DNA of 64,000 nucleotides from Vulcanimicrobiota bacterium (GCA_963818845.1 CAWFTO010000002.1:468016-532015); one strand, 5' to 3'; counted from the stretch's first letter, positions 42,230 through 57,100 are shown. The notes: a model not told the origin generated them from the letters alone. Numbers and translations: made by a program.

Positions 42230-42796
42230 CTACGGCGCGACCGGCGCAGTTGCAGACGGGCGCACGACGTATCTAGTCACCACATACCGCGTCACGCTGC
42301 GCCCGCGGTACACCGCCGTTCCGGCGAGCTCCCCGCCGATGCGGCGGGCAACCGCGACCGAGCGCTCGTTCTGCGCGTGCAGCACGACGCTGATTCGTTC
42401 GAGCCGCAGGTCCCGGAACGCGAAGTCGCGCAGCGCGGTCGCCGCTTCCGTGGCGTACCCACGACCCCACGCGAACGGCGCGAGCCACCAGCCGATCTCG
42501 ACGTCCGGCGCGCCGTCGATCTCGCACCGCAAGAGACCCACCTGACCGAGCGCGGCCCCGTCGTCGCGCCGCTTGAGCACTTTGAACGCATCCCACCGCT
42601 CCCGTCCGGACGTCGCGGCGTCCGCATCGATCCGCGCGTACCGCGCCTCGATCTCACCGTAGCCGTACGTCGCGCCGTCGCCGATCCAGCGCATCACGCG
42701 CGGGTCGGCGTACAGCGACGCGAGGAAGTCCAGGTCCTCGGGCCGCCGGTCGCACAGCGCCAGCCGCGCCGTCGTCAGGAACGCGCCGTCAGGCAT
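42230..42796 (-). CDS. GNAT family N-acetyltransferase (RimJ/RimL-like)
   Basis: TARLAL, EIGWWLAPFAWGRGYATEAA, NERSVAVARRIG. Confidence 0.9.
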   Translation of the reverse strand: MPDGAFLTTARLALCDRRPEDLDFLASLYADPRVMRWIGDGATYGYGEIEARYARIDADAATSGRERWDAFKVLKRRDDGAALGQVGLLRCEIDGAPDVEIGWWLAPFAWGRGYATEAATALRDFAFRDLRLERISVVLHAQNERSVAVARRIGGELAGTAVYRGRSVTRYVVTRYVVRPSATAPVAP

Positions 42797-44294
42797 CGTC
42801 CTCGGCGGCGTCGTCGGGCGCGTCCGTCGGCAACGGGCGCTGCAGCGGAAACAGCAGCACGTCGCGGATCGACGCGTTGTTCGTGAGCATCATGACGAGC
42901 CGGTCCACGCCGATGCCGATGCCCGCCGTGGGCGGCATCCCGTACTCGAGCGCCGTGACGAAGTCCCAGTCCGGCGGCGGCACCTCGTCGTCCCCCGCGG
43001 CCTTTTCGGCGACCTGGAGCTCGAAGCGGCGCCGCTGGTCGTCCGGGTCGTTGAGCTCCGTGAACGCGTTCGCCAATTCCATGTGGTCGGCGAAGAGCTC
43101 GTAACGCTGCGTGAGCTCGGGATCATCCGGCATGCGCTTGGCCAGCGGCGAGAGCACGACCGGGTATCCGTACACGAACGTCGGCTGCAGCAGATGCGGT
43201 TCGACGATGCGCTCGAACAGCTTGTCGAGCGCGTGCGCGTGCGTCGGCGAGTCGGGGATACCGAACTGCCGCAGCAGCGCGAACGCCCCGGCGGGGTCGA
43301 GCAGCTGGTCGCGCGTGACGCCGCCGAACTCCTCGAACGCTTCCAGGTAGCCGATGCGGCGGAACGGCGTCGCGAACGCGATCGCGTTCTCGCCGTGCAT
43401 GACCGTCTCCGAACCGTGCACGGTGCGAGCGAGATGGGCCATGAGCTCTTCGTTGAAGCGCATCATGTCCGTGACGTCCCAGTACGCCGCGTAGAGCTCG
43501 AGCATCGTGAACTCGGGGTTGTGCGTGCTGTCGATGCCTTCGTTGCGGAAGATCCGTCCGATCTCGTAGACGCGTTCCATGCCGCCGACGATCAGCCGCT
43601 TGAGGTTCAGCTCCGTGGCGATGCGCAGGCTCAGGCCGATGTCGAGCGCGTTCGAGTGCGTGAGGAACGGCCGCGCGGTCGCTCCGCCCGCGATCGTGAG
43701 CAGCGTCGGCGTCTCGACCTCGAAGAAGCCCTGCGCGTCAATGAACCGGCGCATCTCGGCGACGATGCGCGAGCGCGTCAGCATCACGTCGCGCACGTGC
43801 GGGTTGACGATCAGATCGACGTACCGGCGCCGATACCGCTTCTCGACGTCCTGCAAGCCGTGCCACTTGTCCGGCAGCGGCTGCAGCGACTTGCCGAGCA
43901 CCTCGAGCGAGGACACGTAGAGTGAGAGATCGCCCGCCTTCGTGCGGAACACGAAACCGGTCGCGCCTGCGATGTCGCCGCGCTCGAGCTCCTTCGCCAC
44001 CCCGAACGCCTCGTCGCCGACGTCGTTCTGCCGCACGAAGAGCTGGAAGCGTCCCGTGCGGTCGTGCAGGTCGAAGAAGATGACCTTGCCTTGACCGCGC
44101 GCGGCCATGATGCGGCCGGCCAGCGACCAGGTCTCGCCTTCGGCACGGCCCTGCTCCGGCAGCGCGGCATACTTCGCGGCCAGGTCCGCCGCGTGCGCGG
44201 TGACGTCGTAGCGGGTGGCGGCGAACGGCTCGACGCCGCGCTCGCGCAGCGCGGCCAGCCGGGCGCGGCGCGCGGCGAGCAAATCAGCCCGCAT
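42789..44294 (-). CDS. lysS: Lysine-tRNA ligase (class II)
   Basis: RYRRRYVDL, EVETP, GGATARPF, LRIATELNLKRLIVGG, FRNEGID, YGMPPTAGIGIGVDRL. Confidence 0.97.
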   Translation of the reverse strand: MRADLLAARRARLAALRERGVEPFAATRYDVTAHAADLAAKYAALPEQGRAEGETWSLAGRIMAARGQGKVIFFDLHDRTGRFQLFVRQNDVGDEAFGVAKELERGDIAGATGFVFRTKAGDLSLYVSSLEVLGKSLQPLPDKWHGLQDVEKRYRRRYVDLIVNPHVRDVMLTRSRIVAEMRRFIDAQGFFEVETPTLLTIAGGATARPFLTHSNALDIGLSLRIATELNLKRLIVGGMERVYEIGRIFRNEGIDSTHNPEFTMLELYAAYWDVTDMMRFNEELMAHLARTVHGSETVMHGENAIAFATPFRRIGYLEAFEEFGGVTRDQLLDPAGAFALLRQFGIPDSPTHAHALDKLFERIVEPHLLQPTFVYGYPVVLSPLAKRMPDDPELTQRYELFADHMELANAFTELNDPDDQRRRFELQVAEKAAGDDEVPPPDWDFVTALEYGMPPTAGIGIGVDRLVMMLTNNASIRDVLLFPLQRPLPTDAPDDAAEDDA

Positions 44295-44301
44295 CGCGCT
44301 G

Positions 44302-44805
44302 CTAAGAGGCTTTCTTCGTTTTCTTGGGGTCCTTGTTGATCGCCTCGATCTTGTACTTCATCTGCCCGCGCGGCGTGGTGACGTCGACGGTCTCGCCCTT
44401 CTTGCGGCCCATCACGGCGCGGCCGAGCGGCGACTCGTTCGAGAGCCGTGCGTTCTTCGGGTCGGCCTCCGCGGAGCCGACGATCGTGAACTCGTGCGCG
44501 GTGCCGGAGGTGACCTCTTTGACCTTGATCGTCGCGCCGAGGTGGACTTCGTCGGCGACGTAGTCCGACGCGTCGATGACGCGCGCGTTGCGAATCATGG
44601 TCTCGAGCTTGAGGATGCGGCCCTCGACGAACGCCTGCTCTTGCTTCGCGTCCTCGTACTCGGCGTTTTCCGAGATGTCGCCGAACTCTTTGGCCTGACG
44701 GATCCGTTCGTTGACCTCGCGGCGGTGGACGCTCTTGAGCTCGTCGAGCTCGTCCTCGAGCTTCTTGAGCCCGTCGCGGGTCAAAACGATTTCTTTGTCG
44801 TTCAA
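44302..44805 (-). CDS. greA: Transcription elongation factor GreA
   Basis: GDISENAEYEDAK, SNESPLGRA; TTG start. Confidence 0.96.
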   Translation of the reverse strand: MNDKEIVLTRDGLKKLEDELDELKSVHRREVNERIRQAKEFGDISENAEYEDAKQEQAFVEGRILKLETMIRNARVIDASDYVADEVHLGATIKVKEVTSGTAHEFTIVGSAEADPKNARLSNESPLGRAVMGRKKGETVDVTTPRGQMKYKIEAINKDPKKTKKAS

Positions 44806-46190
44806 AAGCGACTCCCGGTACTTCGATCGGCCCCTGCCGTACCGTGCGCCCGAACAACGCGTCCGCGCCACAGCGCCAGGGGAAGCCCGATGATTGCGGA
44901 GGCGGCGATGAAACCCCTGGTGTTGGCATCGTCCGTTTGGAGCGACGAAATCAGGATCACCGTCAGGACGACGGCCGCAAGGCCGGGCAGCGCGACCGCC
45001 GACCAGACGGCGGCACGCTCGGCGATGAAGACGCGCACTGCCGCGGCGGCCGTCAGCACGAAGAGCGCACCCAGAAACCATGCCGTGCCGCGCAGCGCGA
45101 AGTCGAATGCCGACTTGGCCGACGGCCACAGGCCCGCGGCCAGGCAGCAGGCGACCGAGAAGCCGCCGACGAGCAGGATCGAGGCGGCCGGTTCGGCGCG
45201 ATGGTCCAGCGTGCCGAGCCGGCCGGGCACCAGGCGGTCGCGCCCCATCGCGTAGACGCTGCGGGTCAGGTACACGAGAGTGGTCTGGAGCGACGCCGCG
45301 AGCGACACGAGGACGGTCACGGCGAGGGCGGGACGCCACGCGCCGCCAAGCAGGCTGCCGACGTACGCCAGCGCGTCGTCCTCGTGCGCGTCGAACCCCG
45401 CGGCGCTGCCGAGGCGCGCGAACGCGACGATCGCGGCGAGCAGCACGGCGCTCGTCAGGACGAGCCCGGCGATGCCGCCGGTGCCGGGCGCCGTCGCGAC
45501 GCCCTGCGCCTCCTCGGCGGTCGACGCCGAGACTTCCCAGCCGTCGAGCATCCAGATGCCGATCACGATCGCGCTCGCGATCCCGCCCCACGCGACCGGC
45601 CCGCCCGCGAACGCGACGGCATCGGCGTGCGGCTGCAGCGCCGCGAGGCCGGCCGCGCCGGCGAGGACGACGAGCTCCGCGACCAGCAGCGCGAGCGCGA
45701 GCAGAGCCGTGGGCCGCAGGCCGTACCACAGCAGCACCGAGGTCGCGGCGATCCACGCGCACGCGACGAGCGCGACGGCGACCGGGCTGTGCGCGAGCGC
45801 CGGTGCGACGAGGTCGAGCGTGTACGTGCCCGCGGGCAGCGCGGTCGCCAGCACGGCGAAGACGTTCGCGACGAGCAGCACCCACGCGGCGTACGCGCCG
45901 GCGGCCGGACCGAACGCGACGCGAATCCACGCGTACGACGATCCCGCGTCGCGCATGCGCTCGCCCAGGCGGCGGTATCCGGCCGCAATCATCGCCATCA
46001 GCACCGCGACGATCGAAAGCGCCAGCCACGTCCAGCGCCCGGCCGCGGCGATCATCGCGGCCATCGTGGTCGCAAGCGAGAACGCCGGCCCCATCGACGC
46101 CGCTGCGACCACGATGAGGTCGCGCAGCGCGAGGACGCGGCGCAGGTGCGGCGCCGAGCCGGAGGGGCTCGCCGGCAGGGTGTCGTTCAC
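44802..46190 (-). CDS. APC family amino acid/polyamine permease
   Basis: About 12 TM helices; MGPAFS, GSSYAW, DGWEVSASTAEE, RSVYAMGRD. Confidence 0.88.
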   Translation of the reverse strand: MNDTLPASPSGSAPHLRRVLALRDLIVVAAASMGPAFSLATTMAAMIAAAGRWTWLALSIVAVLMAMIAAGYRRLGERMRDAGSSYAWIRVAFGPAAGAYAAWVLLVANVFAVLATALPAGTYTLDLVAPALAHSPVAVALVACAWIAATSVLLWYGLRPTALLALALLVAELVVLAGAAGLAALQPHADAVAFAGGPVAWGGIASAIVIGIWMLDGWEVSASTAEEAQGVATAPGTGGIAGLVLTSAVLLAAIVAFARLGSAAGFDAHEDDALAYVGSLLGGAWRPALAVTVLVSLAASLQTTLVYLTRSVYAMGRDRLVPGRLGTLDHRAEPAASILLVGGFSVACCLAAGLWPSAKSAFDFALRGTAWFLGALFVLTAAAAVRVFIAERAAVWSAVALPGLAAVVLTVILISSLQTDDANTRGFIAASAIIGLPLALWRGRVVRAHGTAGADRSTGSRF

Positions 46191-47611
46191 GGCCGCCGGC
46201 GCAGCAGCGAGTTGCGGTACCCGTACGCGGCGTACGCGACGAGACCGATCGCGAACCAGACCAGAAAGCGCAGCCACGTCGCCGGCTTGAGCCCCTCGAC
46301 CGTCAGCCACGTGCACAGCACGATCCCGGTCGCCGGCACCGCGACCGGGCCGAACGGCACGCGGAACGGCCGCGGCGCGTCGGGCTGCGTGAAGCGCAGC
46401 ACCAGCACGCCGGCGCACACGATCACGAACGCCGAGAGGGTGCCGATGTTGACGAACTCGAGCAGCACCGTGAGCGGCAGCCCGGCCGCGAACAGCGCGA
46501 TGACGCCGCCGGTCACCAGGGTGATGACGATCGGCGTGCGCGTGCGCGCGTTGACGCGCCCGAACACCGGCGGAATCATGCGGTCGCGCGCCATCACGTA
46601 CAGGATGCGAATCTGCCCGAGCAGCGAGGTGAGCATCGACGCCGCCGCACCCGTCACCGTGCCGACGAGCACGAGCCCGAAGAGCAGGTTCGATCCGTGG
46701 TTCTTCACGACCGCGTCGACCATGCCGGACGAAGCGGAGACCGTGTCCCACGGCACCACGCCCACCGTCACCGCGGCGGCCGCCATGAACAGCACCGCTC
46801 CGATGACGAGCGAGAGGATGACGGCGCGCGGCACGTCCCGCACGGGATCGCGCGCCTCTTCGCTCGCGACCGTCACCGTGTCGAACCCGATGTACGCGAA
46901 GAACACGAGCGCCGCGCCGATCACGACCCCGTGACCGCCGAGCGGCGCGAACGGCCGAAACGCGCCCGGGCGCACCGCGCCGCCGAGCGCGAGCGCGAAG
47001 GCGACGATCGCGACGATCTGCACGACGACCAGCACGACGTTGGTCGCGGCCGACTCGCGGATGCCGACGGCGAGCACGACCGAGAGCAGGACCACCGACG
47101 CCGCCGCGATGACGTCGACCTGCGAGTGCGCCGCGTCGATCCCGTGCGCGCTGATGATCACGTTGCCTTGCTGCGCCCACGCGGGCAGCGTCGCGCCGGC
47201 TTTCGCGAGCAGCTGCTGCAGCGCGCCCGACAGCGTCGCGGAGAGCGGCGCAACGCTGATGCCGTACTCGAGGATGAGGTCCCAGCCGATGATCCACGCG
47301 ACGATCTCGCCGAGCGCGGCGTAGCCGTACGTGTACGCGCTGCCGGCAATCGGCACCATCGACGCGAGCTCGGCGTAGCAGAGCGCGACGAACAGACACG
47401 TGACGCCGGCGAGTGCGAACGACGCGACGACCGCCGGTCCGGCGGCGTTCGCTCCGCTGCCGACCGTCGTGAAGATGCCGCCGAGCATCGTGCCGAGGCC
47501 GATCGCGACGAGGCCGCCGACGCCGAGCACGCGGCGCAGCGGAACGCCGTCATGCGGCACGCGTTCGCGGTCGTACGCCTGCCGCCGGAAGAGCTCGCGG
47601 ACGAGGTTCAA
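46187..47611 (-). CDS. APC family (cationic amino acid) permease
   Basis: GLGTMLGGIF, CYAELASMVPIAGSAYTY, GWDLILEY, FFAYIGFD, EEARDP, RILYVMARD; TTG start. Confidence 0.92.
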   Translation of the reverse strand: MNLVRELFRRQAYDRERVPHDGVPLRRVLGVGGLVAIGLGTMLGGIFTTVGSGANAAGPAVVASFALAGVTCLFVALCYAELASMVPIAGSAYTYGYAALGEIVAWIIGWDLILEYGISVAPLSATLSGALQQLLAKAGATLPAWAQQGNVIISAHGIDAAHSQVDVIAAASVVLLSVVLAVGIRESAATNVVLVVVQIVAIVAFALALGGAVRPGAFRPFAPLGGHGVVIGAALVFFAYIGFDTVTVASEEARDPVRDVPRAVILSLVIGAVLFMAAAAVTVGVVPWDTVSASSGMVDAVVKNHGSNLLFGLVLVGTVTGAAASMLTSLLGQIRILYVMARDRMIPPVFGRVNARTRTPIVITLVTGGVIALFAAGLPLTVLLEFVNIGTLSAFVIVCAGVLVLRFTQPDAPRPFRVPFGPVAVPATGIVLCTWLTVEGLKPATWLRFLVWFAIGLVAYAAYGYRNSLLRRRP

Positions 47612-48534
47612 CGCAAGGGCGGGACGGAGTCCGCGAACGCGATGACGCGAGGGCGAAGATCGAGTCGCGCGAGCAGGTCGCGGTAGTCGTCGTCGGTCAC
47701 GTCGGCCCATTTCTTGCCGAGCAGCGCGATCATCGCGGCCTCGACGACGTTCGTGCCGAACGAGCGTCCGCCGAAGTCCGGCGTCGTCGTGACGAGCCGC
47801 GCGATGCCGTGCTCGCGCAGGAAGTCGACGTCGCGCGCCGTGACGGTGTTCGTCAGGATCGTCTTGCCGTCGAGCCGCTCGGGCATGAACTGCCGCATGA
47901 AGTGGTAGTCGCCGGCGATGATGTCGGCGTCTTCGTAGTATTCGGGATACTTGGGCTGCGGCGCGCGGTCTTGCTTCTTTCCCGTCGGGTAGAAGAACTG
48001 GAACGGCAGCTTGCACGCATCGGGCAGATACTTGCGCGCCATCTCCTCGAACTCGTCGAGCCCGCGCACCGGCCGGTCGAGGTCGAGCGCGAAGATGAAG
48101 TCGCCGAACACGACGTCGGCGCCGGCCTGCACGAGCGCCTGCGCCATGCCGAAGCGGTCGAGCGCGCTGACCATCAGCACGCGCGTGCCGCGCAGCTCGA
48201 TGCCGAGCGCGCTCTGCATGAACGCGACGGCGCTGCGCTCGAGCGTGTTCTTCAAGCCGCTGCCGTCGACGACGGGCGTCGTCTTCACCGCGTCGAGCAG
48301 CCGCAGCCCGTCGCGCAGCGCGTAGCGGTCGCTGCCCGCGTACAGGTACACGTCGATCCCGCCCAGCCCGATCGCGTCGACCGTGCCGTCGAGCTCGTGC
48401 AGCTTCGCGATCGCCTTGTCGATCGAGCCGTCCGTCCCTACGCGCGAGATGTCGAACCGCTCCCCGAGCAGCTCGACCTCGGCGCGATGATCGCGCGACG
48501 ACGACCCGAGCGAAACCGAGACGACGGTCTTCAC
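47608..48534 (-). CDS. Conserved uncharacterised protein (family often auto-annotated as quinate 5-dehydrogenase)
   Basis: VSVSLGSSSRDH, RVGTDG, VDAIGLGG, TPVVDGSGLKNTLER, SFGTNVVEA. Confidence 0.8.
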   Translation of the reverse strand: MKTVVSVSLGSSSRDHRAEVELLGERFDISRVGTDGSIDKAIAKLHELDGTVDAIGLGGIDVYLYAGSDRYALRDGLRLLDAVKTTPVVDGSGLKNTLERSAVAFMQSALGIELRGTRVLMVSALDRFGMAQALVQAGADVVFGDFIFALDLDRPVRGLDEFEEMARKYLPDACKLPFQFFYPTGKKQDRAPQPKYPEYYEDADIIAGDYHFMRQFMPERLDGKTILTNTVTARDVDFLREHGIARLVTTTPDFGGRSFGTNVVEAAMIALLGKKWADVTDDDYRDLLARLDLRPRVIAFADSVPPLR

Positions 48535-48565
48535 GCCGCGGTCCCCATGGCACGCCGAGCTTGTT

Positions 48566-48589
48566 TGTCACCCTGAGCTTGTCGAAGGG
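48566..48589. repeat. Solo 24-bp REP-like repeat
   Basis: Identical to the 37594 copy; on the minus strand it starts on the base after the OsmC gene TGA. Confidence 0.85.
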
Positions 48590-49069
48590 TCATGCTGGCT
48601 GCACGGCCGTGACGCTCGCCTCGTGGCGGACCGGAAAGTTCACGCTGTTGGCGATGAAGCACAGCGCGTGCGCCTTCTCGTGCAGCGCCTGCGCGTCCGC
48701 GACGCGCGACGCGTCGGCGACGGCGACGCGCGGCCGCAGCACGACCTCCCGGAAGCGGATCGCGCCGTCGATCAGCGTCATCTCGCCGCGCGCGTCGTCC
48801 TCGTACGCGACGACGGCGATGCCGGCGCGCGCGCACTCCGCGAGGTAGGACAGCAAGTGGCATGCCGAGAGCGACGCGACGAGCAGGTCCTCGGGGTTGT
48901 ACGCCGAGCCGTCGCCCAGAAAGTGCGGGTCGGCCGATCCGCGCAGCGCGGGCTTGCCGTCCGACTCGATCGTGTACGCGCGCGAGTACGTCTTGTACGA
49001 CGTCGTCGCGCCGTGCGCCGCGCCGTCCCACGTCACGCGCGCCGCGAAGACGTGCGGGCGGACGTTCAC
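48590..49069 (-). CDS. OsmC/Ohr family protein
   Basis: NPEDLLVASLSACHLLSYL and AHALCFIANSV two-Cys motifs. Confidence 0.92.
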   Translation of the reverse strand: MNVRPHVFAARVTWDGAAHGATTSYKTYSRAYTIESDGKPALRGSADPHFLGDGSAYNPEDLLVASLSACHLLSYLAECARAGIAVVAYEDDARGEMTLIDGAIRFREVVLRPRVAVADASRVADAQALHEKAHALCFIANSVNFPVRHEASVTAVQPA

Positions 49070-50175
49070 GCCGAGGCCGCCTTGCGCTCGTGCGCCGCGG
49101 CGCGCGTGCGCGCGATCGCCTCGCGCGAGATCGGCAGGTCGAACGCGCGCATGTCGGCGAGCTCGAAGCCGGCGCGCGACGCGAGCTCGTCGATCTCGCG
49201 GACCTTCGCCACGTCGATGCCGCGCCCGAGCGTGAACGGCTCGCAGCGGTCCTCGAGCGCGAGCACCATCGTCTCGGACATGCACGCGAGCGCGGTGCCC
49301 TGCGGCAGCCCCATGTCGAACGGCTCGCCCGCTTCGCGTACGCGCGTCCACCGCATCGCGCCGGGGACGCGCATGTTGCCGCCTTCGAGCACGAGCACGT
49401 CGGGCCGCTCGACGGCCACCCGGCGGCTGACGTCGTGCGGGAGCGACAGCTCGCACACGACGGCGCCCGGCCGCAGGTCTTCCGGCTCGATCACGTCCTG
49501 CGTCGACGACGTCGCCGTGAGCACGAGGTCCGCGCGCCGCACCGCGGCGGAGATGTCGGTGGTGTACGACGAGCCGCACGGCAGCCGCTCGCGCATCGAC
49601 TCGTGAAACCGTCGCAGGCGCGTCTCGTTGCGCGCGACGAGCACGACGTGCTCGACGTGCGGCGCGATCAGCTCCACGCACGCACCGCCGATCGAGCCGG
49701 TCGCACCGATCACGGCCGCGGTCGCGCCGCGCGCGTCGACGCCCATCTCCGCTGCACCGCGGAAGAGGCTGCGCACGCCGGCCGCGATGGTGAGCGAGTT
49801 GCCGGTCGTCACCGGGATCGGCGAACGTTCGTTGAGCGTGATGCCGCCGTCGCCGACGACTCCGGTGAACGCACCCAAGCCGGCGACCTGCGCGCCGCGC
49901 TCGACGCCGAGGTCGATCGCCTTGAGGATCCGCTCGTACACCTGCTCGCGCGGAAACTCGAGCATCTGCTGCGGCAGCAGCGGTGCGGCGACGAACCAGC
50001 CCTCGGTCTCGCGCCCGTCCGGCGTACGAACGCCCGTGACGTGCGCGGCGGGCCACGCGGGCATCCATTCGAGGATCTTCGCGATGATCGGCTTGCCCTT
50101 GCCCTTGGCGCCGGGCTCGTAGCGCACGACGTCTTCGAACGAAAGGGGGTGGATCACAAAGCAGAACTTGGCCAT
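49066..50175 (-). CDS. Acyl-ACP/acyl-thioester reductase-like oxidoreductase (AAR / PigE N-terminal-like; shikimate-DH fold)
   Basis: KFCFVIHP, GLGAFT, TTGNSLT, VIGATGSIG Rossmann motif and LACMSE align with the AAR motifs LGGFT, TTGNTHT, VGATGDIG and FACFAE. Confidence 0.8.
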   Translation of the reverse strand: MAKFCFVIHPLSFEDVVRYEPGAKGKGKPIIAKILEWMPAWPAAHVTGVRTPDGRETEGWFVAAPLLPQQMLEFPREQVYERILKAIDLGVERGAQVAGLGAFTGVVGDGGITLNERSPIPVTTGNSLTIAAGVRSLFRGAAEMGVDARGATAAVIGATGSIGGACVELIAPHVEHVVLVARNETRLRRFHESMRERLPCGSSYTTDISAAVRRADLVLTATSSTQDVIEPEDLRPGAVVCELSLPHDVSRRVAVERPDVLVLEGGNMRVPGAMRWTRVREAGEPFDMGLPQGTALACMSETMVLALEDRCEPFTLGRGIDVAKVREIDELASRAGFELADMRAFDLPISREAIARTRAAAHERKAASA

Positions 50176-50242
50176 CCCGAGCCGCCGTTTCGCCCCTCCG
50201 CCGCCGGGAGCCCGCGTGCCGCCCGGGGAACGGTATGGGGGC

Positions 50243-50914
50243 ATGAATCAGACCCTCTCGACCATCGAGGAGCTCCTCCGCATCCCGGCGCCGTGCCCCA
50301 GCCCGATGGGGCTCGCGTGTGACGGACCGGACCTGTGGATCGGCTCCTACGAGACGTGCCGCATCTACGGCATGGTGGCCCAGCAAGGGCGCGTGTTCGA
50401 AGAGGCGGTCGCGCCGGGCAGGCCCTACGGCATGACGGTCACCGGCGACGCGCTTCGCGTCGTCGTCGGCGACGCGGACGACGGCGGAGCCGACGATCGC
50501 TACATCCGCCGGTACGTGATGGGCAAGGACTTCAAGAAGTCCGACGTCGTGGGCTGTCCCGGGGGAACCGGCTCCTTCCTGGCGTACGACGGCGATCGCC
50601 TGTACCTGAGCCAGCGCGACAACAAGGTCATCCTCGAGCTGGACGAAGCCGGGGACGTGCTGCGGACGATTCCCGTGCCGCGTCAGATCACGGGGATGGT
50701 GGTCGTCGCGGGCCGCTTCTACCTCGCCACCACCGAGAGCCGGGAAGTCGACGACTACCGGCTCTTGTGTTTGGACGCGCGGAAAGAGCAGCCCGAGGTC
50801 CACGAGCTCGCCTCGATCGGCTTCGCGGCGCGCAGTCTCGGCTTCGACGGCACGAAGTTCTGGACGAACTGCCGCGCGGAGAACACGATCGTGGCGTTCG
50901 CCAAACCCGATTGA
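50243..50914 (+). CDS. Hypothetical beta-propeller protein
   Basis: Five spaced repeats (GLACDGPDLW, GMTVTGDAL, FLAYDGDRLY, GMVVVAGRFY, SLGFDGTKFW). Confidence 0.7.
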   Translation: MNQTLSTIEELLRIPAPCPSPMGLACDGPDLWIGSYETCRIYGMVAQQGRVFEEAVAPGRPYGMTVTGDALRVVVGDADDGGADDRYIRRYVMGKDFKKSDVVGCPGGTGSFLAYDGDRLYLSQRDNKVILELDEAGDVLRTIPVPRQITGMVVVAGRFYLATTESREVDDYRLLCLDARKEQPEVHELASIGFAARSLGFDGTKFWTNCRAENTIVAFAKPD

Positions 50915-50973
50915 ACGCCGGAAACAACCCACCTCGATCCCGCCGCTCGAGCGTTCGCGCGGTCATCGAATCG

Positions 50974-51990
50974 ATGCTCGAGGACCAGACGGTCGTCGCG
51001 GAGATTCACGACGCGCTGTGGGCGGTGCTCTGGAACCGCCGGTACGACGACGTCGACATCCCGCTGTGGATGCCGGAGTCGTCGTACGGAGGCATCCTCG
51101 CGTACGCACGCCCGGTCGATGCGGAGACGGCGCTCTGCGCGGTCGACACGGGTGAGGCGCTGGTCGTGTTCCGCTGCAGCGGCGACGTTCCGCCGGCCGG
51201 CAGCCGCGTGCGGCTGCTGCCCGCCGCCCGGGACCAGTGGCGCATCGTGGAGCCGGTCATCCTCGGACTCGGCGTCACCCTTCGATTCGACGACCAGAGC
51301 CCGGTCGACGACACGACGTGGATCGCGACGTTGCGTGCCGCCGTGCAGCGGCTGCGCGAAGCGCTCGACGTGCGGCGCGAGCGCGTCGCCGCCCGCCGCG
51401 CGCAGCTCGGCGCGCTGAACGAACCGCCGCCGCTCGAAGAGATCTGGCGGGAGCAGATGTCGGCGATCAACGACCGCGCAATGCTCGCCACCGAGTACAC
51501 GGCGCAGGAACACGCCGCGCTCGCGCGCGCACGCGCCAAAGGCGCGCGCAGCGCCGACGAAGAGGAGCGCAAGATCACGGCCGCGCGCAAGCGCCGCTTC
51601 TCCGAGCGCGGCAACGAAGAGATCGCGCGGTTCCGCGAAGAGGAATGGCCCGCCATCCGCGACCGCGCCGCGGCGGAAATCAAGAAGTACGCCGACTACC
51701 GCACCGAGGTGGTGCGCCTCGAGGATGCGCTGCAGCGGCTGCGCAGCGTCTCGGCCCGCGCGAACAACGTGACGACCGCGCTGGACCGCATCGAGCGCGC
51801 CGGCTTCCACGTCCGCGGTTTCCAGCTCGATCTCGCGCGCCTCGAGGAACCCGAGTATGCCGAGGAGCTGCTGCGCACGGTCGAGCTCCTGCACGCCGCG
51901 ATCCCGCAGCGCGCGCAGAACACCGCGACCAGCTTCAGCGCGTACCGTGCGCCGACTGCGGGGCCGTCCGTGACTCCGCCTCGGCTTTGA
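50974..51990 (+). CDS. Hypothetical protein, beta-rich N-terminus plus long coiled coil
   Basis: Protein-like part of ORF 50335..51990 begins near ATG 50974; heptad-rich C-terminal half. Confidence 0.65.
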   Translation: MLEDQTVVAEIHDALWAVLWNRRYDDVDIPLWMPESSYGGILAYARPVDAETALCAVDTGEALVVFRCSGDVPPAGSRVRLLPAARDQWRIVEPVILGLGVTLRFDDQSPVDDTTWIATLRAAVQRLREALDVRRERVAARRAQLGALNEPPPLEEIWREQMSAINDRAMLATEYTAQEHAALARARAKGARSADEEERKITAARKRRFSERGNEEIARFREEEWPAIRDRAAAEIKKYADYRTEVVRLEDALQRLRSVSARANNVTTALDRIERAGFHVRGFQLDLARLEEPEYAEELLRTVELLHAAIPQRAQNTATSFSAYRAPTAGPSVTPPRL

Positions 51991-52402
51991 GCGCAGCGAG
52001 CATCATCTCGGAGTTCTCGCGCACCTTCTTCTCCAGCGTCGGCCCGATCAGTTCCGCCAGCGTCGGCACGCCGAAGTCGTACTCGACGCCGAGCACGACG
52101 CGCGTGACGCCGCCGGCTTCTTCGAAGGTCCAGGCGCCTTGGAACGTGTCGAGGTCGCCCTCGATCAGCGCGTAGTCGATGCGCAGGCGCTCGTCGTCGA
52201 AGCGGTCTTCCTCGGTCCACTCGATCGGAGCGTCCTCGACCAGCGTCTTCCAGCGCGTAATGACGCGGTCGGCGTGGCGCTCGAGCACGACGACGGTCTC
52301 GACGTCCGGCATGAACTCCGGAAACCGCTCCTGCTCCTTCGCGAGCTCGTACACCAGCGACGGCGGCGCCGCGACGTCGACCGCGCACTGAACGAACGGC
52401 AC
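51935..52402 (-). CDS. SRPBCC/START (polyketide cyclase/dehydrase-like) lipid-binding protein
   Basis: VDVAAPPSLVY...FPEFMPDV...W.E.D...IEGD...FQGAW...YDFG; start overlaps the aminotransferase stop. Confidence 0.88.
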   Translation of the reverse strand: MPFVQCAVDVAAPPSLVYELAKEQERFPEFMPDVETVVVLERHADRVITRWKTLVEDAPIEWTEEDRFDDERLRIDYALIEGDLDTFQGAWTFEEAGGVTRVVLGVEYDFGVPTLAELIGPTLEKKVRENSEMMLAALKAEAESRTAPQSAHGTR

Positions 52403-53682
52403 TACACGAGCTCGCCGAGCTGCTCGAGCGTCGCCGCGACGGACGCGTCGAAGGCGCGCAACGCCGCGTCGATCTCGTCTTCCCTTACGATGAGCGGCGG
52501 CTCCAGGCGGATGACGCGCTGGGCATTGAGCGTCCACGCGGCGGTGACGCCGCGCTTGAGCAGTTCCGGGATGATCGTTCCTCCGTAGCCTTCGCTGCGC
52601 AGCTCGACGCCGACGAGCAGGCCGGCGCCGCGGACCTGTGCGATCACCGCCGGGTAACGCCGCATCACCTCGCGCGCGCCCGCGAGCAGCTGCTCGCCGC
52701 GCACGCGCGCGTTCGTGACGAGATCGTCGTCGACGAGCACGTCGAGCGCCGCGAGGGCGGCCGCGCACGCGAGCTCGTTGCCGCCGAACGTCGAGGTGTG
52801 CAGCAGCGGCTGCTTGCCGTACGCCGCGTTCCAGACCGGCTTGCGCGCAATGTACGCGCCGATCGGCACGACGCCGCCCGACAGGCCTTTGGCGAGCGTC
52901 ATCACGTCGGGCACGACGCCTTCGCGGTCGCACGCGAACGGCGCGCCGCAGCGGCCGAGGCCGGTCTGCACCTCGTCGGCGATCATCAGCGCGCCCATGT
53001 CGTGGCAGATCGCGCGCACCGCGCGCAGGTAGCCGTCGGGCGGCACGTTGACGCCGCCTTCGCCCTGGATCGGCTCAACGATCACCGCCGCGACCTCGCG
53101 GTCGACGGTGCCGCGGAGCGCATCCGCATCGCCGAACGGCACGCGGCGCACACCGTCGAGCAGCGGCAGGAACGGATCGCGGAACGCGTCGCGCCCGCTC
53201 GCCGAGAGCGCGCCCAGCGTCTTGCCGTGAAACGCCGCGTCCGTTGCGACGATCGCCGGCCGCTTCGTCGCGGCGCGCGCGAGCTTGAGCGCGCCTTCGA
53301 CCGCTTCGGTGCCGCTGTTGGCGAAGAAGGAGATCGCGAGGTCGCCCGGCGTCAGCTCCGCAAGCCGCTTGGCGAGCCGCCCCATCAGCGGGTTGAACAT
53401 CGTGCGGCCCGACAGCGCCATGCGGTCGAGCTGGTCCTTGACCGCGGCGACGACCCGCGGATGCCGGTGCCCGAGCGTGAACACGCCGTAGCCGCCGGCA
53501 AAGTCGAGATACGTCTTGCCGGTGTGATCGGTGATCGTGCATCCCGACGCGGACACTTCGACCGGTGAGCCGGACAGCTTCATGACGCGCGCGAGCGGCG
53601 GGTTGACGTAGTCGCGGTAGTTCTCGAAGGCCTCGCGCGCCAGATCGGCCGCTTGTGCGCTCGTCGGGGAGCCGGCGGTCAC
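52402..53682 (-). CDS. Class III PLP-dependent aminotransferase
   Basis: FFANSGTEAVE, FHGKT, EPIQGEGG, IADEVQTGLGR, TLAKGLSGG, STFGGN; GTG overlaps the dusB stop. Confidence 0.93.
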   Translation of the reverse strand: MTAGSPTSAQAADLAREAFENYRDYVNPPLARVMKLSGSPVEVSASGCTITDHTGKTYLDFAGGYGVFTLGHRHPRVVAAVKDQLDRMALSGRTMFNPLMGRLAKRLAELTPGDLAISFFANSGTEAVEGALKLARAATKRPAIVATDAAFHGKTLGALSASGRDAFRDPFLPLLDGVRRVPFGDADALRGTVDREVAAVIVEPIQGEGGVNVPPDGYLRAVRAICHDMGALMIADEVQTGLGRCGAPFACDREGVVPDVMTLAKGLSGGVVPIGAYIARKPVWNAAYGKQPLLHTSTFGGNELACAAALAALDVLVDDDLVTNARVRGEQLLAGAREVMRRYPAVIAQVRGAGLLVGVELRSEGYGGTIIPELLKRGVTAAWTLNAQRVIRLEPPLIVREDEIDAALRAFDASVAATLEQLGELV

Positions 53683-54704
53683 GCGACGGCCAGCTCGCGC
53701 GCGTCCGACTCGAGGTGCGCGATCGTGTCGTGCAGGACGGCGAGCGTCGCCGCAGCCGTCTCCGTCCGCATCAGCCGCTCGCGCAGCGCGCTCGCGCCCG
53801 GGAACCCTTTGAGATAATAGCCCAGATGCTTGCGCATCTGCGGCACCGCGCGCGACTCGCCCCATTCCTCGACCATCGTGCAATAGTGGTGCACGGCGAA
53901 TCGCAGCCGGTCGGGCGCGGCGGGCGTCGCGTCGGGCTCGCGTCCTTCCATGAGCGCGCGCAGACGCGAGACGAGCCACGGATTGCCCAGCGTCGCGCGC
54001 CCGAGCATCACGCCGTCGACACCGGTGTCGCGCATGCGGCGCATCGCCTCGTGCGGATCGCCAAGGTCCCCGTTGCCGATCACCGGGACGTCGACGGCGC
54101 GCTTGAGCTCGGCGATCTTCGTCCAGTCGGCGCTGCCTTTGTAGAATTGCTTCGCGGTGCGCGCGTGCAGCGTGATCGCCTGCACGCCCACCGCTTGCGC
54201 GCGCTTGGCGACGTCGACGAAGACCAGCGCGTTCTCCGTCCACCCGAGGCGCATCTTCATCGTGACGGGACAGTCGACGGCGTCGACGACGGCCTTCATG
54301 ATCGCCTCGCAGCGGTCGACGTCGCGCAGGCACGCGCTGCCGCCCTCCGTCTTGGTCACCTTCGGGGCCGGGCAGCCGAAGTTGATGTCGACGATGTCGG
54401 CTCCGCACTCGCGCACGACCTTGGCGGCGAGTGCCATGATGGCGGGATCGTTCCCCCACAGCTGGGTGGAGACCGGGTTCTCGACGCCGTGCTGATCGAT
54501 CATCTCCATCGTCCGCGCGTTGCCGTACTGCAGCGCATTCGACGAGACGAACTCCGTGACGGTCAGGCCGAAGCCGAACGGCTTGTAGAGCGCGCGCAGC
54601 GTGCGGTTCGTGACGCCCGACATCGGCGCGAGGACGATCGGCGGCCACACCGCGATGGGGCCGATCTGGAGCGCAGGCACGGCACGGGCCGGGGGACTGG
54701 TCAC
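53679..54704 (-). CDS. dusB: tRNA-dihydrouridine synthase DusB
   Basis: LAPMSGVTN, DINFGCPAPKV, GGSACL, KMRLGW, LHART, IGNGD, MLGRA.GNPW; GTG 54704 lies 8 nt after an extended -10 (TGGTACACT). Confidence 0.95.
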   Translation of the reverse strand: MTSPPARAVPALQIGPIAVWPPIVLAPMSGVTNRTLRALYKPFGFGLTVTEFVSSNALQYGNARTMEMIDQHGVENPVSTQLWGNDPAIMALAAKVVRECGADIVDINFGCPAPKVTKTEGGSACLRDVDRCEAIMKAVVDAVDCPVTMKMRLGWTENALVFVDVAKRAQAVGVQAITLHARTAKQFYKGSADWTKIAELKRAVDVPVIGNGDLGDPHEAMRRMRDTGVDGVMLGRATLGNPWLVSRLRALMEGREPDATPAAPDRLRFAVHHYCTMVEEWGESRAVPQMRKHLGYYLKGFPGASALRERLMRTETAAATLAVLHDTIAHLESDARELAVA

Positions 54705-54815
54705 GATCAAGGAGTGTACCACGTCTCCGCGCGCGCCGCCCGCGGGCGGCCGCGCGACGTGCACGCCGTTCGCTCGCCGGCACGCCCGGCGAGCCGGGCA
54801 CCGGCCGAAACGTGA

Positions 54816-54912
54816 GTTTGTGGATGTGCGGGGTACCGACGTGCCACCGGCGTGCGTGCGCCGGTCGCACACCAAAACCAGGAGAGCCCCGAGCCGTCGA
54901 GCCGGGGCTCTC
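54816..54912. ncRNA. Candidate structured RNA (three-way junction plus terminator-like hairpin)
   Basis: TGTGCG/CGCACA closing stem with inner GGTAC/GTGCC and ACCGGCG/CGCCGGT hairpins, then GAGAGCCCC/GGGGCTCTC. Pairing judged by eye; no family recognised. Confidence 0.3.
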
Positions 54913-55017
54913 GGCTTGCCCGGCCAGCGGACCGGTCGCGGCCGGCCGCGAACGCGCTTCGCAGCCCGCTCGGCCCTTCGGTCCGAGCGAGGCGAACGCT
55001 TCTCCCGGAGGCTCGGC

Positions 55018-55116
55018 ATGGCGACGCAAAAGAAGCAGAAGATCAGCAAGACCAACAAGGGCGGCAAGAAGGGCAAAAAACGCTTCCGCCTGCGGACGCG
55101 TCCCGCGAACGCCTGA
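55018..55116 (+). CDS. 32-aa highly basic small protein
   Basis: GGAGG RBS 6 nt before the ATG; MATQKKQKISKTNKGGKKGKKRFRLRTRPANA; A-rich codons. Confidence 0.65.
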   Translation: MATQKKQKISKTNKGGKKGKKRFRLRTRPANA

Positions 55117-55131
55117 CGCGCAAGCGCGCCG

Positions 55132-55896
55132 CTACGCGCGCAGGTGGTCGACGCGCAGGCCCTGCAGCACGAGGTGCGGCTCGACGCGCTCGATCACCGT
55201 CGTCTCCGCGGCGACGACGAGCGCCATCCCGCCCGACGCGATGACGCGCGCTTCGTCGCCCAGGACGCCGCGGAAGCGGCGCACGAGCTCCTCGGTCTGG
55301 CCGACGGCGCCGTAGACGAGCCCGGCTTGAATCGCGCTCACCGTGTCGCGCCCGATCGGCGCGCCCGGTGCGACGAGCGCGACCTGCGGCAGCTTCGCGG
55401 TGCGGCCGACGAGTGCGTCGAGCGAGACCTGCAGTCCGGTCGCGATCGCGACGCCCAAGTACGCGCCGTCGGACCCGATCGCGCCGAACGTCGTCGCCGT
55501 GCCGTAGTTGATGACGATCGCCGGCGCGCCGACGAACGCGACCGCGCCGATCGCGCCCGCGACGAGATCGCTGCCGACCTCGGTCGGGCGGTCCGTCTTG
55601 ACCACGATCGACCGCTGCGTCGCCGCGGTGAAGAACGACGGCTTCACGCCGAAGTACTTCTCGCAGCCTTCGCGCAGCGGGCGGTCGACGACCGGCACGA
55701 CCGACGACACGACGATCGCGCTCACGTTCGCGATCGGAAACTGCGCCGCGGAGAAGAATGCCGCGAACAGCACGCCGTACTCGTCCGCGGTGCGCCGGCG
55801 CGCCGTGGTCACGCGCCACGTGCCGACGATCGTGCCGGCGTGGTCGAACGCGCCGAGCTTGGTCTCGGTGTTGCCGACGTCGATGCAGAGCAGCAC
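55132..55896 (-). CDS. coaX: Type III pantothenate kinase
   Basis: IDVGNTETKLG, SSVVP, VGSDL, INYGTATT, SGG. Confidence 0.94.
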   Translation of the reverse strand: MLLCIDVGNTETKLGAFDHAGTIVGTWRVTTARRRTADEYGVLFAAFFSAAQFPIANVSAIVVSSVVPVVDRPLREGCEKYFGVKPSFFTAATQRSIVVKTDRPTEVGSDLVAGAIGAVAFVGAPAIVINYGTATTFGAIGSDGAYLGVAIATGLQVSLDALVGRTAKLPQVALVAPGAPIGRDTVSAIQAGLVYGAVGQTEELVRRFRGVLGDEARVIASGGMALVVAAETTVIERVEPHLVLQGLRVDHLRA

Positions 55897-55900
55897 GGGC

Positions 55901-57100
55901 TCAGCCGCGCTGTTTCTTGAGATCGACGATCGCGTCGAGCAGGCGCGCGGCGAGCTCGCGCTTCGAACCCGTGCCGAGATCGGCGCGTCCGCCGTCGCCC
56001 CAGAGCAGCACGAGCCGGTTGTCGACGGGACCGAAGCCGCGCTCGTCGCCGACGTCGTTCACCGCGATCGCGTCGAGGTTCTTGCGCGCGAGCTTCTCGC
56101 GCGCGTTGGCTTCGAAATCGCGCGTCTCGGCCGCAAATCCCACCAAGAAGACGCCGTTCTTGCGCGCACCGAGCCCGGCGAGAATGTCGGGGTTGCGCGC
56201 GAGCGCGAGCGCTTGCGGGTCGTCGGTCTTCTTCACCTTGTGCTCGTGCGCGGTCGCGGGGCGCCAGTCGGCGACGGCGGCGGTCGCGATCGCGATCGTC
56301 GCGTGCGGCGCGCTTTCGCGCACGGCCGCGTCCATCTCCCGCGCCGTCGTCACGCGCGCGGTGCGTGCGCCCGCCGGCGGCTCGAGGTGCGTCGGGCCGA
56401 GCACGAGGTCGACGCCCGCGCCGCGCGCGAGCGCTTCCCGCGCGAGCTCGATTCCGGTCGTCCCGGTCGACGCGTTCGAGATGAAACGCACCGGGTCGAT
56501 CGCTTCGCGCGTCGGGCCGGCGGTGATCAGCACGCGTTCGCCGTCGAGATCATTGCGCCGCGCCAGCGCGCGGTCGATCGCCGCAATCAGCAGCTCTTCC
56601 GGCGCCAGCCGGCCGGCACCGTGTTCGCGCTCGGCGAGGAAGCCGACGTCCGGCTCGACGATCGTGACGCCGCGTGCGCGCAGCGTCGCGAGGTGGCTGC
56701 GCGTGGCTTCGTGCTCGAGCATCGCGGTGTTCATCGCCGGAGCGATCACGATCGGAGCGCGCGTCGCCAGCGCGACGTTCGTGAGCAAGTCGTCGGCGAG
56801 CCCGAGGGCGAGCTTGGCGATCGTGTTCGCCGTCGCCGGGATGATGGCAAGGACGTCGGCGTCGCGCGCGAGCGCGATGTGCGGGATCTGTTCGGCGCGC
56901 TCCCACAGCGACGTGTGCACGGGCCGGCGTGCCAACGCGGCGAACGTCGCCGCGCCGACGAAGCGCTCGGCGTCGGCCGTCATCACCACGTCCAGCACGG
57001 CGCCCGCTTGCACGAGGCGGCTTGCGAGCGCGGCCGCCTTGTACGCCGCGATCCCGCCGGTGACGCCCAGCAGGACGCGCGCGCCGTCAAGCCGCGACAC
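55901..57100 (-). CDS. coaBC: Bifunctional phosphopantothenoylcysteine decarboxylase/ligase
   Basis: GVTGGIAAYKA, PATANTIAK, APAMNTAM, TAGPTREAIDPVRFISN.STG, VGFAAET. Confidence 0.96.
   Translation of the reverse strand: MSRLDGARVLLGVTGGIAAYKAAALASRLVQAGAVLDVVMTADAERFVGAATFAALARRPVHTSLWERAEQIPHIALARDADVLAIIPATANTIAKLALGLADDLLTNVALATRAPIVIAPAMNTAMLEHEATRSHLATLRARGVTIVEPDVGFLAEREHGAGRLAPEELLIAAIDRALARRNDLDGERVLITAGPTREAIDPVRFISNASTGTTGIELAREALARGAGVDLVLGPTHLEPPAGARTARVTTAREMDAAVRESAPHATIAIATAAVADWRPATAHEHKVKKTDDPQALALARNPDILAGLGARKNGVFLVGFAAETRDFEANAREKLARKNLDAIAVNDVGDERGFGPVDNRLVLLWGDGGRADLGTGSKRELAARLLDAIVDLKKQRG

Follow-up and report, generated by a model that had tools for sequence, protein, structure and literature searches.

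What do four conserved genes, set among housekeeping genes, make of an activated fatty acid or a similar hydrophobic acid? The question is raised by a stretch of 64,000 nucleotides from a Vulcanimicrobiota bacterium (GCA_963818845.1 CAWFTO010000002.1:468016-532015), hereafter the window, which has a composition of ~70% G+C and belongs to the lineage Eremiobacterota; its nearest named proteins come from Candidatus Eremiobacteraeota, Elarobacter and Baltobacteraceae. The four genes encode a class III aminotransferase (AT), a small SRPBCC/START-fold protein (SRPBCC), a stand-alone acyl-thioester reductase (RED) and a protein of an undescribed family (the partner). We propose that they work together in a single conserved pathway belonging to primary metabolism, in which an activated hydrophobic acid would be converted to a primary amine, likely for a membrane lipid, a reading that we hold with confidence and doubt in equal measure. 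The underlying enzyme logic, a thioester reductase acting with an omega-transaminase, is already known. Three things are new: the division of this logic among four components within primary metabolism, a partner family not described before and, as a candidate for a lipid pathway still without assigned genes, a PlsY-like::RED fusion that is universal in Deinococcota.

A split reductase and aminotransferase with two companions

An earlier note, made from the sequence of the window alone, had read AT and RED as a split version of PigE or TamH, and our searches support this reading well. PigE (MAP, 2-methyl-3-amylpyrrole, branch of prodigiosin synthesis in Serratia; PDB 4ppm; NCBIfam NF053554) carries both catalytic modules on one polypeptide, reducing a thioester and then aminating the aldehyde (PMC8341465), and the same chemistry may be expected, by analogy, of RED and AT. 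The same two domain families make up TamH (tambjamine YP1, Pseudoalteromonas tunicata) and the natural fusions of a transaminase (TA) to a domain of the cyanobacterial acyl-ACP (acyl carrier protein) reductase (AAR) type, found in PP_2782, Thermaerobacter and Thermincola. TamH converts fatty acyl-ACP to fatty amine, giving dodecylamine from C12-ACP (PMC9594044), and the TA domains aminate linear aliphatic aldehydes, taking the amino group from L-Glu (PMC9594044, PMC10829540).

RED matched the N-terminal half of the PigE profile (positions 45-361, E 2e-57) and AT the C-terminal half (positions 369-733, 437 bits, E 1e-130), each scoring far under the whole-protein cut-off of 850 bits. The best PDB match of RED was again PigE (4ppm, E 2e-37), with AAR (6jzq) at E 1e-19. 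RED contains an AAR-like domain with a catalytic cysteine (Cys298, in the LACMSE motif that the earlier note had picked out) and a GxxGxxG nucleotide motif; across 43 diverse RED homologues the acyl-accepting cysteine is nearly invariant and GATGSIG is kept. Vulcanimicrobium alpinum has a RED with 80% identity to the window protein, and an exhaustive HMMER search returned 3054 RED relatives, many of greater length.

With AAR itself (TIGR04058; 6jzq/6jzu) RED shares the motif and, by homology, probably the fold and the Cys-acyl-enzyme mechanism. However, it matches the AAR model at 92.9 bits (E 2e-26) against a curated cut-off of 449.7 bits. In a maximum-likelihood tree the cyanobacterial AAR clade stands apart (97/87 support) and the window RED lies outside it, in a large unresolved assemblage together with PigE, fusion proteins and Deinococcota sequences. 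The aldehyde-deformylating oxygenase that accompanies AAR was reported missing from the window, and we detected none in the whole genome (TIGR04059).

The window genes also differ from the known systems in their setting. PigE belongs to a pigment cluster and has a 3-acetyloctanoyl thioester as its substrate, whereas RED and AT are separate genes in the window and at every Eremiobacterota locus, and are accompanied by SRPBCC and the partner in a housekeeping locus. TamH-type proteins are fused in the order TA-TR, have the adenylation-ACP partner TamA, act in secondary metabolism and lack SRPBCC and the partner. A precedent for the split is offered by TabE/TabA of Streptomyces (tambjamine BE-18591), a stand-alone acyl-ACP reductase and a stand-alone omega-transaminase that yield a fatty amine; TabE, however, is of the aldehyde dehydrogenase/LuxC type and unrelated to AAR, and the system belongs to secondary metabolism, with its own ACP and an editing thioesterase (bioRxiv 10.1101/2025.08.11.669332).

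AT carries a class III pyridoxal phosphate (PLP) transaminase domain of the PatA/PigE type. In the PDB it matched PatA (4uox, E 6e-115) and PigE (4ppm, E 3e-95), and in NCBIfam it reached neither PatA cut-off (NF008570, 472 bits versus 612; TIGR03372, 417 bits versus 658.65). Among 14 control genomes, a PatA-like AT was present in Escherichia coli, Methanosarcina and Thermus thermophilus; AT is enriched with RED and not exclusive to it.

SRPBCC aligned to positions 1-123 of the 126 of PF03364 (70.1 bits, cut-off 23.4). Its closest solved relative, matched over the full length, is PDB 2d4r, 'hypothetical protein TTHA0849' (E 6e-24), TTHA being the locus-tag prefix of T. thermophilus HB8.

The partner gave no match in Pfam, NCBIfam or PDB sequence searches, and its homologues are named 'hypothetical' or, often and wrongly, 'quinate 5-dehydrogenase'. 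Some 38 of its residues are invariant, and charged ones are frequent among these; the invariant polar residues include R14, R31, D35, D90, K95, E99, D126, R127 and D145. The protein lacks both a catalytic cysteine and a glycine-rich nucleotide motif. It is better conserved than RED, at 48-52% versus 36-40% identity to the Deinococcota proteins. Its AlphaFold (AF2) model is confident (predicted local distance difference test, pLDDT, 90), and Foldseek found for this model only weak, two-domain Rossmann-like likenesses, with top TM-scores of 0.46-0.49, to AAR. The AIGLGG and PVVDGSGLK motifs singled out by the earlier note are present, but the similarity to RED that they were taken to indicate did not hold: on sequence, a paralogous relation of the partner to RED was rejected (BLASTP E 0.17, hhalign probability 0.4%), leaving a borderline likeness of fold (TM 0.49). 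The partner belongs in the gene set because of its fusions to RED and its strict co-occurrence with it, not because of motif similarity. We read it as a protein that obligately accompanies RED and has a putative ligand site of its own. Independently of any question about lipids, it represents a very conserved enzyme-like family without a Pfam model that always occurs together with an AAR-type reductase.

Distribution, gene order and fusions

To describe the distribution of the set we used raw genome counts, which ignore phylogeny, and pragmatic E-value thresholds for calling orthologues. Of 41 relatives within the phylum, 39 carry RED and 40 carry AT, and both genes occur in all 24 high-quality genomes, which span ten genera of the class. 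Outside the phylum, RED-bearing genomes contained the partner in 20 out of 20 cases, an AT orthologue (46-55% identity), located elsewhere, in 17 out of 20 and an SRPBCC homologue in 13 out of 19. In the GTDB class around Syntrophaceticus (Bacillota), RED is present in 29 of 30 genomes, the partner in ~27 and an AT orthologue in ~25. The genes thus do co-occur, a point on which the earlier note had been prepared to see its proposal fail.

Gene order was read by tblastn on 80 fetched loci. The usual order in Eremiobacterota is coaX-dusB-AT-SRPBCC-RED-partner, contiguous and on one strand (~30 loci), and it extends to deep lineages in which RED is just 42-44% identical. In other families of the class, the gap between AT and RED measures 450-660 bp, which is the length of SRPBCC. 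Beyond the phylum, the partner followed by RED forms an adjacent pair in Armatimonadota, Abditibacteriota, Negativicutes and several Clostridia, and this pair often comes straight after coaX-dusB, including in Negativicutes and Clostridia, which is also where the cassette sits on Eremiobacterota chromosomes. The use of one site across phyla argues for old vertical inheritance from a very old insertion site.

AT and SRPBCC are frequently adjacent as well. The SRPBCC gene follows AT in Negativicutes and Sulfobacillus, and in Tumebacillus AT, SRPBCC and RED are contiguous while the partner lies elsewhere. The neighbours of the unlinked Firmicutes AT-SRPBCC pairs (xerC, an M48 peptidase, ndk) and of the Tumebacillus AT-SRPBCC-RED genes (gerA, uvrC) gave no clue to the pathway.

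The AT, SRPBCC and partner families are each fused to RED somewhere in nature. At least six SRPBCC-RED fusions were detected (P0146, P0160, P0144, P0177, P0216 and a PilZ-SRPBCC-RED protein, P0138), together with an AT-RED fusion (P0242), an AT-RED-AMP-ligase (P0256) and a GNAT/FemAB-AT-RED protein (P0268). In partner-RED fusions, numerous proteins of ~700-830 residues, the N-terminal ~300 residues are homologous to the partner (E 6e-30 to 6e-53). A further protein joins RED to GAF-GGDEF (P0230); the domains related to cyclic di-GMP on P0138 and P0230 hint at second-messenger control of the pathway in some lineages.

An AT-RED fusion gene, annotated just as an aminotransferase, was also seen on 128 Ralstonia records (mostly R. 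solanacearum) of a plasmid collection, ~2 Mb in size. The matches in this collection were only AT-RED fusions, from Ralstonia megaplasmids and a few others, and no Deinococcus or Thermus copies were among them. In two genomes of the Syntrophaceticus class (G133:C87:171841-173175 and G134:C90:3755-5086), the AT orthologue lies inside an open frame of 676 residues and may be fused to a further domain.

Relatives in Deinococcota and a candidate pathway

The AAR model matched only three of the 14 control genomes, Synechococcus, T. thermophilus and Deinococcus radiodurans. A Thermus aquaticus genome, located through Taq polymerase I, contains a single open reading frame with an N-terminal PlsY domain (PF02660, E 4e-26) and a C-terminal RED. 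This full-length PlsY-like::RED fusion, free of stops, is present in all 61 sampled Deinococcota, next to a normal stand-alone PlsY. The RED part of the fusion shares 36-40% identity with the window RED and reads ACLAETMI at the cysteine motif. Unlike the window RED, the fusion bears at its N-terminus a divergent PlsY-like membrane acyltransferase domain, and it is unlinked to AT, SRPBCC or the partner. The fused PlsY-like domain keeps FLKG and GHxxP and is missing the GSGNIGATN of the stand-alone T. aquaticus PlsY (canonical GSGNxGATN); because of this loss, it may use a donor or acceptor different from that of normal PlsY. The partner is single-copy and unlinked in 41 out of 41 tested Deinococcota, and a close AT orthologue (48-54% identity) occurs in the 29 members with small genomes, which are of the Thermus/Meiothermus type.

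In T. aquaticus, the fusion gene has rplT on one side and a gene of the PNP_UDP_1 phosphorylase family (L094 10003-10668, plus strand) on the other; the start of the phosphorylase-family gene overlaps the fusion stop by one base. In Deinococcus-type genomes, a PLD-like (PLDc_2) gene of ~480-530 residues comes directly after the fusion (L113 8900-10510, plus strand; likewise L114, L115, L116, L121 and L122). It was considered as a candidate phosphatidyltransferase and dropped, having a signal-peptide-like N-terminus and no homologue in the window genome or at the Thermus loci.

Deinococcota matter here for their lipids. An N-glyceroyl alkylamine is part of the phosphoglycolipids of Thermus and Deinococcus (PMC3398001, PMC9636437). 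The structures of these lipids were characterised long ago, and a 2022 Thermus paper supposes 'a pathway to attach a branched chain fatty amine', assigning no biosynthetic gene (PMC9636437); our literature search found no paper that assigns genes to an alkylamine-lipid pathway. According to the title of Bale et al. (2025), as cited in PMC13274423, an N-glyceroyl alkylamine lipid class dominates several Bacillota, and PMC13274423 also lists N-glyceroyl alkylamines for Moorella thermoacetica. The RED fusion and the partner are found throughout the sampled Deinococcota, a close AT only in the Thermus/Meiothermus type, and one Bacillota class is positive. The connection to Deinococcus-Thermus alkylamines suggested by the earlier note is strengthened by the RED fusion and the partner but is still putative, the close AT being absent from Deinococcus-type genomes.

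The pathway may be pictured from the characterised homologues PigE, TamH and AAR, from which every chemical step is borrowed. An acyl group, speculatively a fatty acyl chain from fatty acid synthase, would pass from acyl-ACP or acyl-CoA (conceivably acyl-phosphate) onto Cys298 of RED. RED would reduce the acyl-Cys thioester with NAD(P)H and release an aldehyde, which AT, as an omega-transaminase of the PatA/PigE type, would aminate with PLP and an amino-acid donor. SRPBCC could hold the water-insoluble aldehyde or amine between RED and AT, or on the way to the membrane, while the partner, with its predicted AAR-like two-domain fold, might present the substrate or take part in catalysis. The likeliest fate of the amine, on a speculative view, would be a membrane lipid of the N-glyceroyl-alkylamine type, as in Deinococcus-Thermus and some Bacillota; the PlsY-like domain or the partner might then help to transfer acyl or glyceroyl groups or to present the substrate. 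We lean slightly towards the sequence of thioester, aldehyde and amine on a hydrophobic substrate, by analogy with these homologues. Chain length and lipid destination are likewise putative, and an alkylamine membrane lipid as the product is a tentative suggestion that we rate as rather doubtful.

If it were right, RED and the partner, with AT and SRPBCC, would be the long-missing enzymes of the alkylamine moiety, and such lipids an old, vertically inherited trait of many Terrabacteria (Deinococcota, Bacillota, Armatimonadota, Eremiobacterota); this broader proposal too has, in our judgement, the balance of probability against it. The Thermus and Deinococcus relatives of the four genes are nevertheless good candidates for alkylamine-lipid genes. 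The plsY-like::RED fusion, the partner, the AT orthologue and the TTHA0849-type SRPBCC make a testable candidate set for the alkylamine phosphoglycolipids, and T. thermophilus and D. radiodurans are tractable models for it. On the same proposal, unusual membrane lipids would be expected in Eremiobacterota, which are widespread in soil and have a single cultured member.

Several observations weigh against the pathway or its lipid product. RED and the partner occur in Negativicutes and Armatimonadota, groups without a reported alkylamine lipid, and the polar lipids of V. alpinum, a relative in culture, were all 'unidentified' by thin-layer chromatography, with no phospho- or aminolipid named (PMC9758169). 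PigE's own substrate is no plain fatty acyl group. The top-scoring NCBIfam and PDB match of AT is the putrescine aminotransferase PatA/YgjG, and E. coli and Methanosarcina have PatA-like ATs without having RED. Deinococcus-type genomes lack a close AT orthologue, their best class III aminotransferase being ~40% identical; since they make alkylamine lipids all the same, an AT of the window type is not universally needed for these. The fused PlsY-like domain, with its missing motif, may be only or mainly a membrane anchor. Finally, AT and RED belong to different transcription units in the window: because RED starts 68 bp from a divergently transcribed plus-strand gene, AT-SRPBCC and RED-OsmC-partner are separate units in this genome.

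These observations leave room for other explanations. RED and the partner might make an aldehyde or alcohol for some other lipid (fatty alcohols, long-chain 1,2-diols or ether-lipid precursors), with AT-SRPBCC a separate add-on. The strictly co-occurring core is indeed RED plus the partner; AT and SRPBCC are absent or distant in Deinococcus-type and some Tepidanaerobacter and Armatimonadota genomes, and outside Eremiobacterota the AT-SRPBCC and RED-partner pairs are mostly unlinked. The lack of an AT orthologue in Deinococcus keeps this explanation alive, but we consider it unlikely, as AT-RED fusions are frequent and two of them, PigE and TamH, are experimentally amine-forming (PMC9594044), AT-SRPBCC-RED is contiguous in Eremiobacterota and Tumebacillus, and no aldehyde reductase or deformylase is associated with the set. 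Alternatively, the cassette could make a specialised or signalling amine that is not a lipid (a cyclic imine or alkaloid, as with PigE and KecF) from a beta-keto or otherwise modified thioester. The secondary-metabolite role of all the closest characterised relatives, PigE, KecF and TamH (PMC8341465, PMC10829540), and the fusion of some RED members to PilZ or GAF-GGDEF signalling domains would fit such a product. The occupation of one housekeeping site, vertical conservation across phyla and universality in whole phyla would not, nor would the fusion of RED to a PlsY-like membrane domain. No polyketide synthase (PKS), non-ribosomal peptide synthetase (NRPS), dedicated carrier protein or tailoring gene lies near the cassette, and we find this explanation quite unlikely. 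The claim of the earlier note that the genes serve core rather than secondary metabolism is supported by this lack of a nearby PKS or NRPS, by their presence in every high-quality relative and by their site between coaX-dusB and greA-lysS.

Two further explanations concern single enzymes. AT might be an ordinary diamine aminotransferase that breaks down polyamines (putrescine or cadaverine), supplied by the APC permease and near RED by coincidence; this would account for its PatA/YgjG matches and for the amino-acid/polyamine-type permease that follows the partner in the window's genus. It is improbable, given a score of 472 bits against the PatA cut-off of 612, an AT-SRPBCC(-RED) adjacency that is kept across phyla and echoed by fusions, the absence of an aminobutyraldehyde dehydrogenase and the absence of the permease from most Eremiobacterota cassettes. 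The substrate of RED, for its part, could be an activated carboxylate other than a fatty one, such as an aminoacyl-tRNA or aminoacyl thioester, with AT acting on the product in the manner of glutamyl-tRNA reductase (HemA) and glutamate-1-semialdehyde aminomutase (HemL). Its nucleotide-binding domain does match HemA weakly (E 7e-10), a Cys-thioester mechanism with a class III-fold partner parallels HemA and HemL, and the cassette lies among dusB, greA and lysS, of which dusB and lysS are tRNA-related. We regard this as very improbable: the full-length similarity of RED is to AAR and PigE and not to HemA, the SRPBCC and PlsY-like fusions suggest hydrophobic, membrane-associated chemistry, and coaX-dusB-greA-lysS is an old housekeeping synteny block, known from Firmicutes genomes. 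It is the fusions, SRPBCC, the PlsY-like domain and the vertically conserved housekeeping context that weaken the non-lipid, diamine and HemA/HemL-like explanations.

Layout of the locus

The features of the locus are listed in Table 1. An old housekeeping block, coaBC-coaX-dusB ... greA-lysS, frames the cassette (window positions 42789-57100), with greA and lysS beyond the APC permease. The neighbours of the four genes are thus coaBC, coaX, dusB, greA, lysS, the permease and an OsmC-like gene, and not those of a pigment or alkaloid gene cluster.

Table 1. Features of the cassette and its surroundings, in window coordinates
Feature	Position	Strand	Remarks
coaBC	55901-57100	-	upstream of coaX
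coaX	55132-55896	-	upstream of dusB
dusB (tRNA dihydrouridine synthase B)	53679-~54740	-	TIGR00737 E 3e-104; context, not a pathway member
AT, class III (omega-type) PLP aminotransferase, PatA/PigE-TA-like, 426 aa	52402-53682	-	Pfam Aminotran_3 E 1e-103
SRPBCC/START-fold small-molecule (lipid) binding protein, ~155 aa	51935-52402	-	Polyketide_cyc E 3e-19
Gene of unknown function	50965-51990	+	Pfam/NCBIfam none; outside the conserved set
Gene of unknown function	50244-50914	+	Pfam/NCBIfam none; outside the conserved set
RED, stand-alone acyl-thioester reductase, AAR/PigE-N-terminal superfamily, 369 aa	49066-50175	-	Cys298 in ALACMSETM; GATGSIG
OsmC-like (peroxiredoxin-like family) protein, 159 aa	48590-49069	-	Pfam OsmC E 4e-16
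Partner, undescribed family, 308 aa	47608-48534	-	no Pfam, NCBIfam or PDB sequence match
APC permease (amino-acid/polyamine type)	46187-47560		after the partner

The overlaps of dusB with AT and of AT with SRPBCC described in the earlier note were confirmed. The first is a GTGA overlap, in which the GTG start of AT (53682-53680) runs into the TGA stop of dusB (53681-53679); in the second, the TAG stop of AT (52404-52402) and the likely GTG start of SRPBCC (52402-52400) have one base in common. The OsmC start overlaps the RED stop in the same way as the first (GTGA). RED lies downstream on the same strand, as the note had stated, but not directly after SRPBCC: the gap is 1.7 kb (~2.2 kb from AT) and holds the two plus-strand genes. 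These are insertions that split the cassette in the window's genus and a few relatives, being absent from the contiguous AT-SRPBCC-RED-partner order of most Eremiobacterota. Scans of the window for sigma-70 promoters and terminators were uninformative at 70% G+C.

Both plus-strand genes have paralogues elsewhere in the genome (for 50244-50914, C3 at 45% and C4 at 36%; for 50965-51990, C1 at 34%). The OsmC gene between RED and the partner is limited to the window's genus and a few relatives, and is a lineage-specific insertion, probably accessory or unrelated to the pathway.

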